Shown here: in pieces, positions 48,826 to 61,433 of the stretch
Numbering within the stretch: the first letter of the stretch is position 1
How the letters are laid out: every line of letters begins with the position of its first letter
Assembly (NCBI GenBank): GCA_011525785.1
Contig: WYBT01000044.1
Location: 15,996-79,995, forward strand
Direction: 5' to 3'
DNA length: 64,000 bases
Source of the DNA: Planctomycetaceae bacterium
Lineage (GTDB): Bacteria; Planctomycetota; UBA1135; GCA-002686595
Notes under the pieces: generated by a model
Told to the model about the DNA's origin: nothing
Database searches by the model: none
Seen by the model: the letters and a program-made list of their open reading frames with translations, nothing else
Made by a program: the position numbers and the translations under genes

Positions 48826-49518
48826 ATGCTGCCCCTGCGCGACGATCAACCCAGCCGCACACGCCCGCTGATCACGCTGGCGCTGATCGCCTTCAACGTG
48901 GCGGTGTTCGTCTACCAGCTCGGGCTCGACGAGCTCCAGACCGAGCGGCTGCTCGAGCACACTGCGCTCCTGCCCGCGCGCCTGGTCGACGCGGCGACGC
49001 ACGGGGCGCGGCTCGAGGCGCTCGAAGCGGCTTCGACACTGGTCACCAGCCAGTTCCTGCACGGCGGCGTGATGCACCTGGTGCTCAACCTGTGGGCCCT
49101 GTGGATCTTCGGCGACAACGTCGAGGATCGCCTCGGTCCGCTGCGCTATCTCGTGTTCTACGTGGCCTGCGGCGCCGCAGCGGGCCTCGCGCACGTCCTC
49201 GCCAGCCCGCAGTCGCTGGTCCCCACCGTCGGGGCCTCCGGCGCGATCAGCGGCGTGATGGGCGCCTACATCGTGTTCTACCCGCGCGCGCGCGTCGTCA
49301 CGCTCGTCCCGGTGCTGTTCTACCCGCTGTTCTTCAACCTGCCGGCAGTGCTCTACCTGGGGCTGTGGTTCGCGCTGCAGGTGCTGAGCGGACTGGCGGA
49401 GAGCTCGGGCTCGGAGAGCGGCGGCGTGGCGTGGTGGGCGCACATCGGCGGCTTCGTGGCGGGCCTGGGGCTCGTGGCCGTGATGGGCCGGCGCAAGCGG
49501 CGCGGGCCGAGCGATTAG
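48826..49518 (+). CDS. Rhomboid family intramembrane serine protease
   Basis: GASGAISGVMGAY (GxSG catalytic Ser), a downstream H in AHIGGFVAGL, and 6 TM segments. ATG at 48826; the longer ORF start at 48730 would overlap corA. Confidence 0.75.
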   Translation: MLPLRDDQPSRTRPLITLALIAFNVAVFVYQLGLDELQTERLLEHTALLPARLVDAATHGARLEALEAASTLVTSQFLHGGVMHLVLNLWALWIFGDNVEDRLGPLRYLVFYVACGAAAGLAHVLASPQSLVPTVGASGAISGVMGAYIVFYPRARVVTLVPVLFYPLFFNLPAVLYLGLWFALQVLSGLAESSGSESGGVAWWAHIGGFVAGLGLVAVMGRRKRRGPSD

Positions 49519-50027
49519 CGAGTGCGAATCCGCGCGTAGATCCACGCCGCGAGCGGCAGGGCGAGCGCCCACAACACGCCGACGCCGATCAGCGACTGCA
49601 CGCGTGGCGCGAGCACCGTGAGCGAGCCCAGTCGCTCGCCGCCCAGATACGACAGCGGCGCGCCGAACAGCGCGAAGCCCGCGTTGAGCCACGGACGCGA
49701 GGTGATCCAGGCCAGCGACGATTGGAACGTGCTCGCGAACACGATCCACAGCGCCAGGATCCACGCCGGCGCGAGCAGCGGGGCGAGCTGCGTTCCGCGG
49801 AACTCGAGCCAGCCCAGTCCGAGCTCGACCGCGCCGACGAGCGCGCCCAGCAGACCGACTGCGACGAGTGCGAGCGCTTCGCTGGAGCGCCGCGGCGCAC
49901 AGCGCACGGCGTAGACGCTCCACAGCGCCACGGCGAGCGGCCCGAGCCACTCGAAGCCGTGCGCCGCGCCGAGCACGCAGGCGAACCAGCAGGCCTGGAA
50001 GCCGATGAAGTTGACCAGCTTGCTCAT
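49515..50027 (-). CDS. DUF2878-family small membrane protein
   Basis: 170 aa with 4-5 TM segments. Lies immediately downstream of cfa, as is typical of DUF2878. ATG at 50025-50027. Confidence 0.55.
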   Translation of the reverse strand: MSKLVNFIGFQACWFACVLGAAHGFEWLGPLAVALWSVYAVRCAPRRSSEALALVAVGLLGALVGAVELGLGWLEFRGTQLAPLLAPAWILALWIVFASTFQSSLAWITSRPWLNAGFALFGAPLSYLGGERLGSLTVLAPRVQSLIGVGVLWALALPLAAWIYARIRTR

Positions 50028-50056
50028 CGGCTCGAGAGCGCGCGCGCTCGCGCTCG

Positions 50057-58203: not shown

Positions 58204-59745
58204 ATGAAGCCCTCGCAAATCAACCAGGCCCTGTCCACCGTCCTCGTCAGCGGAGCGACCGGATTCGTCGGCCGCCAGCTGTGTCTGCGCCTGGCCCGCG
58301 AGGGGGTTCGAGTGATCGCCTGGGTGCGCTCGCCCGAGCAGGCGCGGGGCAGCCTGGGACAAGGGCCCGAGCTGCTGGCGGTGGATGCTCCGCAGGAGAC
58401 GCTGGTCGCCGCCCTGGAGCGTTGCGACGCGGTGATTCACCTCGCCGGCGCGGGGATCTTCGACCGCCGCTGGTCGGAGGCGCGCAAGCGCGAACTGCGC
58501 GCGAGCCGCGTCGACACCACGGCCAAGCTGGTGCAGGCCCTGGCGCGCTGTGCGCACAAACCCGCGCTGGTCAGCGCCAGCGCCGTGGGCTGGTACGGAC
58601 CGCGCGGCGACGAAGCGCTCGACGAGGACTCGGCGCCCGGCGCCGACTACCTGGGCGGCCTGTGTCGCGACTGGGAGCAGAGCGCCCTCGCCGCCCGCGA
58701 GCACGGGGTGCGCGTCGCGATCGCCCGCATCGGCATCGTGCTGGGCCTGGGCGGCGGCGCGCTCGAGCGCATGCTGCCCCCCTTCCGCCTCGGCTTGGGC
58801 GGGCCGCTCGGCTCCGGGCGCCAGTGGATGAGCTGGATCCACGCCGAGGACCTGGTCGAGCTGCTGGTGCGCGCCGCGCGCGACGAACGCTTCCAGGGCG
58901 TGTTCAACGCCGTCGCGCCGACGCCTGCGACCAACCGCGACTTCACGCGCGCCCTGGCCCGTGCGCTGCGCCGTCCAGCTTTCCTGCCGGCGCCCGGCTT
59001 CGCGCTGCGACTAGCGCTTGGCGAGGCGGCCAATGTGCTGCTCACTGGTCAACGCGTCACTCCGCGCCGCGCACGCGAGTGGGGCTTCGAGTTCCGCTAT
59101 CCGACCCTCGAGGTCGCGCTCGAGCAGCTCGTGGGCCGCGCCTCGAGCGTTTCGATCGGCCCGGCGCGCGACGTGCCCGCGTGCGACTACCTCGCGCGCT
59201 CCGCGCCGCGCTACTTGCTCGCCCAGGACACGCTCGTCCCCGCGCCGCTCGAGGAGGTGTTCGCGTTCTTCTCGCGCTCCGAGAACCTGGGCGCGATCAC
59301 GCCCGCGGCGATGAGCTTCCGCATGCTCTCGCCGGCCGGACAGCCGATGCACGCCGGGCGCGAGATCGACTACGCCATTCGCGTCGGGCCGGTCCCCATG
59401 CGCTGGCGCTCGCGCATCGAGGCCTTCACGAACGGCGAGGGCTTCGTCGACAGCCAGCTGCGCGGGCCCTACGCGAACTGGTGGCACGAGCACCGCTTCG
59501 AGCGCGCGGCCAACGGCACGACGCTGATGCGCGACCGCGTGTGGTACGCGCCGCCGCTCGGCCCGCTCGGCGCCATCGCGCAGCGTCTGCTCGTCGCGCC
59601 GCAGCTCGAGGCTGTCTTCCGCTACCGCGAGCACGCCATCGCGCTGCGCTTCGGCCGCGTCGCGCAAACCGCGACAGCGCCCGCGAACCTCGCGCCGGCT
59701 GCCGGGCATCAAGAAAAGGGCCCACGAACGCTCGCACGTTCATGA
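58204..59745 (+). CDS. Epimerase/SDR-like (TIGR01777 / DUF1731, YfcH-like) protein fused to a C-terminal SRPBCC (polyketide-cyclase-like) domain
   Basis: [18 protein letters not shown]ossmann motif. The DUF1731-type tail is followed by an extra ~170-aa SRPBCC-like domain. ATG at 58204. Confidence 0.65.
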
Positions 59746-59936
59746 GCCCTGGTCGTCGCGGCCTGCGCCGAGCAGATCGCTCTGGGCCGGTGGAGAGCTT
59801 CGGTGTGGAACAAGCGCCCTGCGCCAGCGGACAACCCTGAGGGCCTTTGTGCGCCAGTGGCGCCGCCGCTTCAACTGTCGATTTTGACATGCTCGCGCGG
59901 CGAGCGTCGCAGCGCCTGCACCCCGTCGTCCCCCAC

Positions 59937-61433
59937 ATGACCTCCGCCGCTACTGCTCTCGAATCTCCGCCGCTGCGCCTGCGCGCCGCCAACGAGCGGC
60001 CCTGGCGTTCGAAGGGCGACCACGTGCTGTATTGGATGAGCGCCGCGCGCCGCGGAGGCTTCAACTTCGCCCTGCAGCACGCGGCCGCGCGCGCCGCGCA
60101 GTTGGGCAAGCCGCTGATCGTGCTCGAGGCCCTGCGCTGCGACTACCGCTGGGCCAGCGCGCGACTGCACCGCTTCGTGCTCGACGGGATGCGCGACAAC
60201 GCGCGCTGGTTCGCCGAGCGCGGCGTCGCGTACCACGCCTACGTGGAGCCCGAGGTCGGCGCCGGCAAGGGACTGGTCCGGGCGCTCTCCGAGCGCGCCT
60301 GCGGAGTCGTCACCGACGAGTTCCCGTGCTTCTTCCTGCCGCGCATGCTCGCGGCCGCTGCGGCGCAGTGCCCGGCGCGGCTCGAGGTCGTCGACAGCAA
60401 CGGGCTCTTGCCGCTCCAAGCGGCGCCGAACGACTTCCCCACCGCCTACGCGTTCCGGCGCTTCCTCCAGAAGGAGTTGCCAGCGCATTTGGGCGCGGCG
60501 CCGATCGCGGATGCGCTCGCGCACGTGAAGCTGCCCGGCGCGTCGATTCCTGCCGCGATCGCCGCGCGCTGGCCCGCGGCGACGGATGCGTTGCTCGCGG
60601 GCGACGCGCGCGAGCTCGCACGACTGCCGATCGACGCGAGCGTGGCGACCACGGCGTTGCGCGGCGGCGCGCAGGCCGCTCGCGCGGCGTTGAAGCGCTT
60701 CCTCGACGTCAAGCTCGTCGACTACGGCGAGAAGCGCAATCAACCCGAGCCGGAGATGACCAGCCGGCTGTCGCCGTACCTGCACTTCGGACACGTCAGC
60801 GTGCACGAGGTGCTGGCCGAGCTCGCGCGCCGCGAACAGTGGACTCCCGCGCGCGTGGCGAGCAAGGCGAACGGCAAACGCGAAGGCTGGTGGAACATGA
60901 GCCAGCCCGCCGAGGGCTTCCTCGACGAACTCGTGACCTGGCGCGAGCTGGGCTACGTGTTCTGCGCGCGCCGAGCAGACTACGAGCGCTACGAGTCGCT
61001 GCCGGCCTTTGCGCTCGCGACGCTCGACAAGCACGCCGCCGACCCTCGGCCGCACGTGTACTCGCTCGAGCAGTTCGAACGCGCGCAAACCCACGACCGC
61101 GTGTGGAACGCCGCGCAGCGCCAACTGCTGCGCGAGGGCTACATCCACAACTACCTGCGCATGTTGTGGGGCAAGAAGATCCTGGAGTGGTCGCGCACGC
61201 CGCGCGAGGCGCTCGCCGTGTTGATCGAGCTCAACAACCGCTACGCGCTCGACGGGCGCAACCCCAACTCCTACAGCGGCATCTTCTGGACGCTGGGGCG
61301 TTTCGATCGCCCGTGGCCCGAGCGGCCGATCTTCGGGACCGTGCGCTGCATGACCAGCGACTCGACCGAGCGCAAGCTCGACCTCGAGCCGTACCTCGCG
61401 AAGTACGGCGAGGCGGGCTTGTTCGCGAGCTAG
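59937..61433 (+). CDS. phr: Class II CPD deoxyribodipyrimidine photolyase
   Basis: Strong collinear similarity to class II photolyases: GDHVLYWMSAARR, RLSPYLHFGHVS, YIHNYLRMLWGKKILEWSRTPREALAVLIELNNRYALDGRNPNSYSGIFW, FGTVRCMTSDS...KLDLEPYLAKY. Confidence 0.85.
   Translation: MTSAATALESPPLRLRAANERPWRSKGDHVLYWMSAARRGGFNFALQHAAARAAQLGKPLIVLEALRCDYRWASARLHRFVLDGMRDNARWFAERGVAYHAYVEPEVGAGKGLVRALSERACGVVTDEFPCFFLPRMLAAAAAQCPARLEVVDSNGLLPLQAAPNDFPTAYAFRRFLQKELPAHLGAAPIADALAHVKLPGASIPAAIAARWPAATDALLAGDARELARLPIDASVATTALRGGAQAARAALKRFLDVKLVDYGEKRNQPEPEMTSRLSPYLHFGHVSVHEVLAELARREQWTPARVASKANGKREGWWNMSQPAEGFLDELVTWRELGYVFCARRADYERYESLPAFALATLDKHAADPRPHVYSLEQFERAQTHDRVWNAAQRQLLREGYIHNYLRMLWGKKILEWSRTPREALAVLIELNNRYALDGRNPNSYSGIFWTLGRFDRPWPERPIFGTVRCMTSDSTERKLDLEPYLAKYGEAGLFAS

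Follow-up and report, generated by a model that had tools for sequence, protein, structure and literature searches.

We analysed a 64,000-nt window of a Planctomycetaceae bacterium genome (assembly GCA_011525785.1, contig WYBT01000044.1, contig positions 15,996-79,995; "the window" means this whole stretch), which carries a predicted B12-based photoreceptor next to genes for membrane-lipid modification and photorepair. Since the G+C content of the window is about 72%, raw lists of open reading frames (ORFs) are crowded with spurious frames; coding segments were resolved by frame plots of third-position G+C (GC3), and starts by start-codon analysis. In this way nine consecutive, closely packed genes (g1 to g9) were placed on the minus strand at 49515-58110, and two genes, encoding an SDR-SRPBCC protein and a class II cyclobutane pyrimidine dimer (CPD) photolyase, on the plus strand at 58204-61433. 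We consider it fairly probable that the locus forms a photoprotection regulon which light induces and a B12-based photoreceptor represses, and that it includes a pathway to furan fatty acids (FuFAs), a judgement that combines a firmer part, the control, with a less certain one, the lipid product.

For comparison, a family-alignment scan taken with one genome per species gave 80 loci (L001-L080), all in metagenome-assembled genomes (MAGs) of Planctomycetota, Myxococcota and Acidobacteriota. The closest of them, from an uncultured Planctomycetia MAG, carries a regulator 95% identical to g1. The gene order of the window is retained in the Planctomycetota loci L001-L010, and therefore the arrangement is no chance juxtaposition.

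A previous sequence-only reading of this stretch had described the minus-strand genes as tightly packed or translationally coupled, which agrees with the junctions from g1/g2 to g8/g9 (-47, +62, +5, -4, +3, -4, -4 and +29 nt), including GTGA/ATGA overlaps of 4 nt at g4/g5, g6/g7 and g7/g8. Every domain that it had named for the nine minus-strand and two plus-strand genes, in the order it gave, was reproduced by profile searches with Pfam and NCBIfam. It had further derived the SDR-SRPBCC and photolyase genes from one 93-bp divergent region: the spacer between g1 and the SDR-SRPBCC gene is indeed exactly 93 bp (58111-58203), while the ATG of the photolyase gene (59937) lies 191 nt past the SDR stop codon. 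A terminator scan found three weak terminator-like sites, fewer than in shuffled sequences, and none between any of the nine genes. We infer that g1 to g9 are co-transcribed. The whole window gave no Rfam match at gathering thresholds, and thus no cobalamin riboswitch.

The g1 regulator and its predicted operator

The first gene, g1 (57292-58110, minus strand, 272 aa), encodes a regulator with HTH_17/MerR, B12-binding_2 and B12-binding domains (Pfam, NCBIfam), that is, a BldC/HTH_17-type winged helix, a four-helix bundle and a Rossmann B12-binding domain. The helix-turn-helix (HTH) scores 50.3 bits against Pfam HTH_17 versus 33.8 bits against MerR_1 (cut-off 21.6) and matches the NCBIfam BldC-type HTH model at E = 6e-16; by these profiles the DNA-binding domain is of the MerR superfamily, BldC-like subtype. 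The B12-binding domain scores 38.6 bits, above the cut-off of 32.1. In the four-helix bundle g1 carries the Wx9EH motif that caps the adenosyl group (W113-x9-E123-H124), and the motif of the lower axial His ligand, E/DxHxxG, reads D158-D-H160-T-L-G, with H160 invariant. The elements GxxW, EH, GxxH and GxxxP constitute the light-response signature of cobalamin photoreceptors (SignatureFinder, PMC11796333). This four-part signature is complete in g1 (G110-E-R-W113, E123-H124, G157-D-D-H160 and G182-R-Q-S-P186), and its residues are invariant or almost so among 29 homologues of 46-87% identity.

In the PDB, g1 is best matched by Chloracidobacterium thermophilum CtMerR (8jbs, E = 3.5e-21), and CarH of Thermus thermophilus (TtCarH; 5c8d, E = 1.4e-15) comes second; the DNA-binding domain alone also matches 8jbs (E = 1.1e-10), better than it matches BldC. 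The AlphaFold (AF2) model of g1, computed from the family alignment, has a pLDDT of 93.4 and a pTM of 0.82. With this model Foldseek returned full-length TtCarH as the top fold match (E = 3e-13), and the comparison with the B12 domain of CtMerR (8jbs/8jbt) gave TM 0.72-0.75 and a root-mean-square deviation of about 3.5 A at 23-24% identity. Sequence signature, solved homologues and predicted fold support the earlier proposal that a CarH-type B12 photoreceptor heads the operon. However, g1 scores 74.2 bits against the NCBIfam CarH equivalog NF052513 (TransRegCarH), far below the cut-off of 400, and for this reason is not filed as CarH itself.

CtMerR resembles g1 in its non-canonical MerR-like HTH, four-helix bundle and Rossmann B12 domain, but is longer (327 versus 272 aa). 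The two proteins share the light-response signature and a basic residue at the position of TtCarH His132, which is Arg in CtMerR and Lys114, directly after W113, in g1. In TtCarH, His132 is a second His that forms the bis-His adduct and is needed for the light-driven breakdown of the tetramer. CtMerR binds adenosylcobalamin (AdoCbl), is tetrameric and photolyses in green light; an "alternative DNA-binding" domain was noted in it, and with Arg at the His132 position it has no bis-His state (PMC11796333). With Lys or Arg in place of this His, the output mechanism may differ from that of CarH. The CtMerR paper gives no operator or targets (PMC11796333), whereas the present analysis predicts the two for the broader family. 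CarH, or class I LitR, of T. thermophilus, Myxococcus xanthus and Bacillus megaterium shares with g1 the architecture of an AdoB12 repressor and the motifs Wx9EH and xxHxxG; g1 differs from it in its BldC/HTH_17-type DNA-binding domain and in having no His132 equivalent. As described in part in PMC4557120, CarH is an autoregulated, light-relieved repressor that binds tandem direct repeats. These likenesses suggest that g1 is a CtMerR/CarH-like AdoB12 photoreceptor with a BldC-like DNA-binding domain, which would bind AdoCbl and respond to light.

The winged helix of g1 aligns with BldC over 46 residues. The equivalents of BldC Arg30 and His46 are R23 and H39, both invariant, while that of Lys26 is Thr19. 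BldC of Streptomyces (6ama/6amk) has in common with the g1 family the Arg that reads C-G and the wing His in the AT-rich minor groove, and the operator predicted for the family follows its logic of 9-bp head-to-tail repeats. In contrast to the g1 domain, which is fused to a B12 module and has Thr at the Lys26 position, BldC is a stand-alone protein of 68 residues that lacks a sensor domain.

A candidate operator was found by reading the regions upstream of the regulators. The strict pattern GACGAWWT (reverse complement AWWTCGTC) occurs at 87 sites in 13.2 kb of regulator-upstream DNA versus 51 in the remaining 1.28 Mb, i.e. at 6.6 versus 0.04 sites per kb, an enrichment of about 165-fold; dinucleotide shuffles of the upstream regions contain 2.7 +/- 1.7 sites. 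The weight-matrix consensus of the family motif is TGGACGATTTAG. Neighbouring sites on the same strand show a spacing peak at 9 bp (36 cases), with the next at 21-22 and 31-32 bp, and the family operators would be arrays of 9-bp AAWTCGTCC units, often two inverted pairs around a TTGACA core. BldC binds 9-bp head-to-tail direct repeats with the consensus AATTxxxx(C) (PMC5859096), a repeat that the motif consensus AAATCGTCC fits; together with the retention of the Arg30 and His46 equivalents in the BldC-like domain, this provides an independent check on AAWTCGTCC. The 9-bp unit predicted here differs from the 11-bp repeat of CarH.

Three operator-like sites flank or lie within the divergent spacer of the window. 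The best match to the position weight matrix (PWM) in the 64 kb is TGGACGAATTCA at 58098-58109 on the minus strand (PWM 15.5), whose reverse complement includes AATTCGTCC and which overlaps the ATG of g1. Across the loci one site regularly covers the regulator's start codon, where the DNA motif persists although it encodes different residues (MDEF, MDDL, MDEL), so that selection appears to act on the DNA. The third best match in the window, TGGTCGAATCCT at 58193-58204 on the minus strand (PWM 11.1), abuts the ATG of the SDR-SRPBCC gene and is conserved in L001 and L003. A weaker site, TAGTCGAAATAC, lies in the middle of the 93-bp spacer at 58147-58158 on the plus strand (PWM 9.5), with the same position and orientation in L001 and L003. 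A match at 22853 (score 12.8), isolated and inside queA, was treated as chance. In addition, a 24-nt direct repeat at 27-nt spacing (3 x 9) straddles the g1 start codon at 58073-58123; its copies, AATTTGGCCACATCGGCACTGGTC and AATTCGTCCATGGCGGCCCTGGTC, are 75% identical and both start with AATTxxxxC. It may be a degenerate 9-bp operator array that reaches into the coding sequence, or could be due to chance.

Outside the regulator-upstream regions, only six site clusters occur in the 1.28 Mb. The clearest of them, in L041, is 7 kb away from the regulator and falls exactly between an SDR-SRPBCC gene and a divergent g4-type (short-methylase) gene; in it a central TTGTCAATTGACA separates two repeats from two inverted ones. 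The motif is absent at regulator paralogues that have no ufa-type neighbours. Among these, paralogues of Anaeromyxobacteraceae (L014:8916-9914, L033:8195-9109 and L042:8912-9739) are divergent from genes for PAP2_3 membrane phosphatases and lack GACGAWWT; they therefore probably use a different operator and have another lipid-related target.

A distant relative of the regulator was seen at L078:1228-6970, on a contig labelled Klebsiella that is probably mis-binned. Its 392-aa ORF (HTH_17, B12-binding_2 and B12-binding; 31% identity to g1) lies directly 3' of a gene for a TonB-dependent receptor (3421-5814), and genes for ExbB and TonB are divergent from the receptor gene. The receptor/ExbB spacer (3303-3373) contains four motif copies, two plus two inverted around TTGTCAA. 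This locus may represent B12- and/or light-controlled uptake, perhaps of cobalamin itself.

Such a relative, with the same operator layout behind a TonB-dependent receptor, would suit B12-responsive control of uptake, and together with the missing His132 equivalent it could speak for g1 as a sensor of cobalamin availability or redox (AerR/PpaA-type) rather than light, in which case the locus would follow B12 status. We regard this as very improbable, because the full light-response signature separates photoactive from non-photoactive B12 domains (SignatureFinder), CtMerR photolyses (PMC11796333), and all neighbours of known function (the photolyase, RudS and FuFA genes) are light-related. That g1 is instead a B12 photoreceptor which controls its neighbours is, in our judgement, likely.

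Lipid-modification and photorepair genes

The lipid genes centre on g6, g7 and g8. The gene g6 (52146-53420, minus strand) encodes an FAD oxidoreductase with Amino_oxidase and NAD_binding_8 domains (Pfam) and an N-terminal GTGVSG; it lies directly upstream of the DUF1365 gene g7 with a 4-nt GTGA overlap, the same placement as that of ufaD in R. palustris and R. sphaeroides. The g7 product (51364-52149, minus strand) matches DUF1365 (PF07103) with 262.6 bits over profile positions 2-234 of 235 and stands at the UfaO position. The next gene, g8 (50057-51367, minus strand, 436 aa), overlaps g7 by ATGA and encodes a full-length CMAS protein (Pfam CMAS, 286 bits) at the UfaM position. The sequence-only reading had likened its triad of methylase, FAD oxidoreductase and DUF1365 protein to bacterial FuFA biosynthesis, and both the domains and the order of g6-g7-g8 are those of R. 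palustris ufaD-ufaO-ufaM, three genes that suffice for a heterologous host to make 9M5-FuFA (PMC7380195). UfaO is the characterised DUF1365 member and acts in O2-dependent furan ring formation (PMC7380195). By domains and synteny, g6 is a candidate UfaD-type desaturase of the methylated monoene; g7, by its DUF1365 match and position, is a candidate UfaO-type furan-ring-forming protein; and g8, by family and gene position, is a candidate UfaM-position methylase.

The g8 protein scores 282 bits against the NCBIfam model of cyclopropane fatty acid (CFA) synthase, below the cut-off of 400, and among PDB entries it matches E. coli CFAS (6bqc) best. The equivalent of E. coli Cfa His266, which belongs to the bicarbonate site, is Gln in 41/41 g8 orthologues of L001-L080; the Cys139 equivalent is Cys in 27, Ser in 7 and Ala in 6 of the orthologues, and the Tyr317 equivalent is invariant. 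UfaM forms a methyl-branched trans-olefin and no cyclopropane. The change from His266 to Gln hints at non-cyclopropanating chemistry and proves nothing, and Gln at this position could be a sequence marker that distinguishes olefin-forming UfaM-type methylases from true cyclopropane synthases.

The gene g4 (54401-55426, minus strand, 341 aa) encodes an S-adenosylmethionine methyltransferase of the CMAS superfamily (Pfam, PDB comparison). The sequence-only reading had called it a short CFA-family methylase, which does not hold: in the PDB comparison a coclaurine N-methyltransferase (CNMT, 6gkv) matches over the full length with 225 bits and CFA synthases with about 100 bits. The idea of a truncated Cfa was rejected for the same reason, plant coclaurine-type N-methyltransferases being closer. 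The protein AT4G33110 carries the annotation coclaurine-N-methyltransferase-like. FufM, the enzyme that turns monomethyl- into dimethyl-FuFA, is reported to share 38% identity with AT4G33110 (PMC10940516). In addition, g4 and g8 share 27% identity, and 26% was reported between FufM and UfaM (PMC7380195). On the grounds of the CNMT-like best match, the FufM-AT4G33110 identity and these two similar values, g4 is treated as a candidate FufM for methylation of the FuFA ring.

Three further genes accompany this set. The g5 product (53424-54404, minus strand) is a membrane acyl-lipid desaturase of the Delta9 (DesA/DesC) type (Pfam FA_desaturase, NCBIfam DesA family) with the His boxes HRYFSH, HHRDHH and HNNHH, and probably supplies the cis-monoene substrate. 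A DUF1295 membrane protein with a steroid-5-alpha-reductase/ICMT-like fold (PF06966, 221 bits) is encoded by g3 (55432-56262, minus strand). The last minus-strand gene, g9 (49515-50027), encodes a small DUF2878 membrane protein (PF11086, 124 bits) and converges on a rhomboid gene.

The same light/B12 control could also act on a product other than a furan, such as cyclopropane, methylene or methyl-branched acyl chains of a Bfa-like kind. In the mycobacterial route to 10-methyl stearate, BfaA/BfaB pair a CFA-like methylase with an FAD oxidoreductase. The best named matches of g8 are cyclopropane synthases, a Delta9 desaturase would give substrates of the oleate or palmitoleate type and not the cis-vaccenate of known UfaM, and RSP1089, the cfa-like gene at the g8 position of the R. 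sphaeroides operon, is dispensable for FuFA synthesis (PMC7380195). We nevertheless hold such a product to be unlikely. The full-length DUF1365 gene g7 is translationally coupled between g6 and g8, and furan ring formation is the one function that has been characterised for DUF1365; moreover, the core genes g4, g6, g7 and g8 each recur in 41-43 loci, the R. palustris counterparts suffice for FuFA synthesis, and the His of the cyclopropanation bicarbonate site is replaced throughout the g8 orthologues. FuFA as the product of the lipid genes is somewhat favoured.

The second gene, g2 (56325-57338, minus strand, 337 aa), consists of 2-thiour_desulf (DUF523; PF04463, E = 5.5e-40) and DUF1722 (PF08349, E = 1.8e-40) domains, and its C-terminal half matches the E. 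coli YbgA model PRK10167. Aligned with TudS (6z92), it keeps the three cysteines of the [4Fe-4S] cluster, in SACLLG, CPEV and SPSCG. The start was set at GTG 57338, the sole start that leaves the IGVSACLLG strand whole, and overlaps the end of g1 by 47 nt; GTG 57251 was rejected, as it would cut into this conserved strand. The RudS family, in which TudS (DUF523) is joined to DUF1722, comprises tRNA 4-thiouridine desulfidases, and RudS genes occur in light-responsive operons with photolyase and LitR (PMC11417400). By its domains and Fe-S cysteines g2 is a RudS-type tRNA 4-thiouridine desulfidase and not a lipid gene; the sequence-only reading had the DUF523/DUF1722 domains right and their place in lipid modification wrong.

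The SDR-SRPBCC gene (58204-59745, plus strand) encodes Epimerase, DUF1731 (YfcH-like) and Polyketide_cyc (lipid-binding SRPBCC) domains by Pfam. The photolyase gene (59937-61433, plus strand) is the second of its unit; its ATG was set by comparison of N-termini with L001-L003. The protein matches TIGR00591 at E = 1.6e-103 with 347 bits, below the model cut-off of 550, versus at most 35 bits for other photolyase classes. Six PDB matches reach E <= 1e-10, including the class II enzymes 2xry and 3umv, and 8oet and 2xry score about 240 bits.

A conserved hairpin at 59717-59750 (plus strand; 15-pair stem without a U-tract in the terminator scan) overlaps the SDR-SRPBCC stop codon. It shows compensatory changes in L001-L003, with a covariation term of about zero for the four sequences, and could act ahead of the photolyase gene as an attenuator or terminator, or as a site of RNA processing. 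Further structured RNA was sought in the SDR-photolyase spacer and set aside, only this first hairpin being supported with four sequences and covariation near zero. The otherwise divergent spacer contains an invariant 12-mer, CCGGTGGAGAGC, at 59787-59798 (window and L001-L003), which possibly belongs to an internal promoter, marks a processing site or binds ribosomes for an upstream ORF that is not conserved. About 50 nt before the photolyase start, CTGTCGATTTTG at 59875-59886 is a weak matrix match (7.8), conserved in L001 and not in L002/L003, that may provide secondary control of the photolyase gene. An ORF of about 46-50 codons with an ATGA overlap on the photolyase start was rejected as a conserved peptide, since the window and L001 use different frames. 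In L004, L007 and L008 an extra gene of about 230 codons lies between the SDR-SRPBCC and photolyase genes. Its product contains GLAPG...NRTGRPFTGD and by eye resembles family 4/5 uracil-DNA glycosylases; if it is one, the light unit would include a second DNA-repair gene. Downstream, a DUF2071 (acetoacetate-decarboxylase-like) gene at 61447-62310 (minus strand) converges on the photolyase gene, as it does in L001-L002, and is found farther from the photolyase gene in L003-L004. Perhaps it belongs to the cluster as an additional member, or it is a passenger specific to the lineage.

The surrounding genes of the window are ordinary chromosomal ones, including queA, queG, pdxA, fabI, tamB, corA and the rhomboid gene. 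A B12-binding radical SAM gene (6168-7808, minus strand) and the gene for the cobalamin-dependent epoxyqueuosine reductase QueG (16919-18157, plus strand) are consistent with the use of cobalamin by the organism. Two ORFs of more than 440 codons, both with coding statistics that look good, had no Pfam match: 38046-39371 (plus strand, GC3 0.94) at E <= 1e-5, and 62471-64000 (minus strand, GC3 0.82) at E <= 0.01.

Linkage across phyla and known light-responsive systems

Neighbours of the regulator were counted by tblastn of the window proteins against the 80 loci, with the 78 loci that have a regulator match as the denominator. Within 10 kb of the regulator, homologues of g4 were found in 43/78 loci and those of g6 (UfaD-like), g7 (DUF1365) and g8 (CFA-like) in 41/78 each. 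Among the accessory genes of the lipid set DUF1295 (g3) is the most conserved, being present in 37/78 loci. The SDR-SRPBCC gene occurs, divergent from the regulator, in 24/78 loci from all three phyla, RudS in 15/78 and class II photolyase in 14/78. The g5 desaturase was seen in only 13 loci and is for this reason considered an accessory insertion; DUF2878 (g9) was seen in 12, mainly of Planctomycetota. The arrangement differs between the phyla. In Planctomycetota the regulator heads the operon with the lipid genes co-directional, as in the window; in Myxococcota a g4-UfaD-UfaO-CFA operon is divergent from the regulator; and in Acidobacteriota the regulator is followed by photolyase, with SDR-SRPBCC divergent, the latter being linked there whether or not photolyase is present. 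The linkage survives these rearrangements across phyla, which argues for a functional connection between the regulator and its neighbours.

The same data bear on how far such control extends along the operon. It is conceivable that g1 governs only itself and the SDR-photolyase unit, whereas g3 and the genes after it are expressed from an internal promoter, e.g. in a singlet-oxygen response of the extracytoplasmic function (ECF) sigma/ChrR type. A gap of 62 nt separates g2 from g3; in L004 two motif sites cluster within the 3' part of RudS, immediately before DUF1295, suggesting a separate control point; and the same gene set depends on sigmaE/ChrR in Rhodobacter and Shewanella. However, L012 and L018-L020 have no RudS at this place, so that DUF1295 and the lipid genes come right after the regulator; in Myxococcota the operator repeats lie in the spacer shared by the regulator and the divergent lipid operon, and in L041 the operator is at the promoter region of the lipid operon, apart from the regulator. 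Moreover, Pfam scans of the larger ORFs of the window, which were not exhaustive, found no ECF sigma or ChrR gene. Restriction of g1 to its own gene and the SDR-photolyase unit is thus quite unlikely, and control of both transcription units by g1 is preferred.

Several described systems share parts of this locus. In R. sphaeroides (RSP2144, RSP1091-1087) and R. palustris (RPA2571-2568, RPA0924), the order of FAD amine-oxidase, DUF1365 and CFA-family methylase genes is the same as here, and a small membrane protein and an SDR are likewise associated with the FuFA genes. In contrast to the B12 photoreceptor predicted here, those genes are under sigmaE/ChrR and respond to singlet oxygen. Also, fufM and ufaM are unlinked in both species, whereas here their candidate counterparts lie in one operon together with a dedicated desaturase and DUF1295. 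In Shewanella oneidensis the ybgA-phrB-cfa operon (SO_3386-SO_3374) is ChrR/RpoE2-dependent (PMC4336711). This operon and E. coli ybgA-phr resemble the g1 locus in gene content: genes for DUF1722 (YbgA), photolyase and cfa-family proteins are transcribed together there and form a unit for photo-oxidative stress. The Shewanella unit, unlike the g1 locus, is under ECF sigma/anti-sigma control and has no B12 regulator.

LitR systems come closest in target genes. In Pseudomonas putida and P. mendocina, class II LitR proteins (PplR1/PmlR1) act together with a short LOV protein and light-induce phrB, ufaM, SDR, FAD oxidoreductase and hypothetical genes; light regulation is also reported for Burkholderia, whose class III LitR has no recognisable B12 domain (PMC9758184). 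A RudS-type gene, too, is among the light-induced Pseudomonas genes, all of which lie beside the regulator gene (PMC11417400, PMC9758184). The genes listed for the Pseudomonas cluster in the text consulted do not include a FufM-like methylase, a Delta9 desaturase, DUF1295 or DUF2878, all of which are present at the g1 locus. Although the targets are alike, g1 is not a member of these regulator classes: class II and III LitR lack a functional B12 Rossmann domain and act through a LOV partner or another mechanism, whereas the B12 module of g1 is complete and has the His ligand. CarH, for its part, targets carotenoid genes, in contrast to the FuFA, RudS and photolyase genes predicted as targets of g1.

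Proposed regulation and its implications

In the regulation that we propose, g1 would bind AdoCbl in the dark and oligomerise like CarH and CtMerR, and the oligomers would place their BldC-type domains on AAWTCGTC(C) sites at the g1 start codon and in the 93-bp spacer. Bound in this way, g1 would repress both transcription units; we infer repression rather than activation. Light would cut the Co-C bond and loosen DNA binding, so that both units are transcribed, and newly made g1 protein would act as negative feedback for re-establishing the dark state. The plus-strand unit would yield the SDR-SRPBCC protein and a class II photolyase for repair of pyrimidine dimers, and RudS (g2) would remove UVA-reactive 4-thiouridine from tRNA. 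In the lipid branch, the Delta9-type desaturase g5 would form cis-monoenes on phospholipids, which UfaM-like g8 would methylate and the UfaD-like FAD desaturase g6 would convert into a conjugated diene. The UfaO-like DUF1365 protein g7 would then insert O2 and close the furan ring, and the FufM-like methylase g4 would methylate it once more, giving FuFAs that would act as scavengers of singlet oxygen and radicals.

A number of points weigh against this proposal, besides the Lys at the His132 position of g1 and the dispensable RSP1089 mentioned above. A scan of 49300-61700 for sigma-70 promoters gave 0 sites, although the promoter type of this lineage may differ, and so the operator-like sites have no predicted promoter as a point of reference. 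The 62-nt gap between g2 and g3 and the 191-nt gap before the photolyase gene leave space for internal promoters. Both here and in the nearest relatives of the window, the operator-like sites occur singly and in part degenerate (PWM 15.5, 11.1 and 9.5 in the window); clean 9-bp tandem arrays occur in Myxococcota, while the sites at 58098, 58147 and 58193 have no clear 9-bp tandem partner. Therefore, the evidence for the operator is moderate at the level of the window and strong at that of the family. Furthermore, g4 and g8 both score below every NCBIfam equivalog cut-off, and the likening of g4, g6, g7 and g8 to FufM, UfaD, UfaO and UfaM is by domains, gene order and reported identities. Finally, the organism belongs to a lineage known only from uncultured MAGs.

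Beyond the window, the case is about evenly balanced that g1 stands for a distinct family across phyla, which would combine a BldC-type domain with a CarH-type AdoB12 sensor, use an AAWTCGTCC operator of its own, and have as its ancestral regulon not carotenogenesis but the synthesis of dimethyl FuFAs from one complete operon, with 4-thiouridine removal and class II photolyase.

The photolyase/RudS-YbgA/SDR/ufa-cfa module and B12 photoreceptors are each well known, and their combination will be no surprise to a specialist. The sequence-only reading had thought the regulatory arrangement undescribed. Light control as such is known for this gene set under LitR and ChrR-sigmaE, and the finding is therefore a new regulatory variant of a known photoprotection module. 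We found no prior description of control of furan fatty acid, cyclopropane or DUF1365 genes by B12, CarH or LitR, a weak negative from a search that was short on subscription journals. What appears undescribed is a complete B12-binding, BldC-type regulator on this gene set, together with an operator and regulon for CtMerR-type proteins.

With the B12 regulator of this locus, the photoprotection module would stand under at least four sensors, the others being ChrR-sigmaE, LOV with class II LitR, and class III LitR. The candidate operon is compact and includes FufM-like and desaturase genes, so it may serve as a simple cassette for heterologous FuFA production, and it would let the roles of DUF1295, DUF2878 and SDR-SRPBCC, left open by the work on Rhodobacter, be tested. 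The predicted recognition of AAWTCGTCC would be useful to photobiology and to green-light optogenetics, which could obtain tools that read a new DNA sequence. CtMerR-type photoreceptors, characterised so far only as isolated B12 domains, would gain a predicted operator and regulon. If the proposal is true, it would provide the first operator and target genes for these photoreceptors and the first link of B12 photoreception to FuFA remodelling of the membrane.

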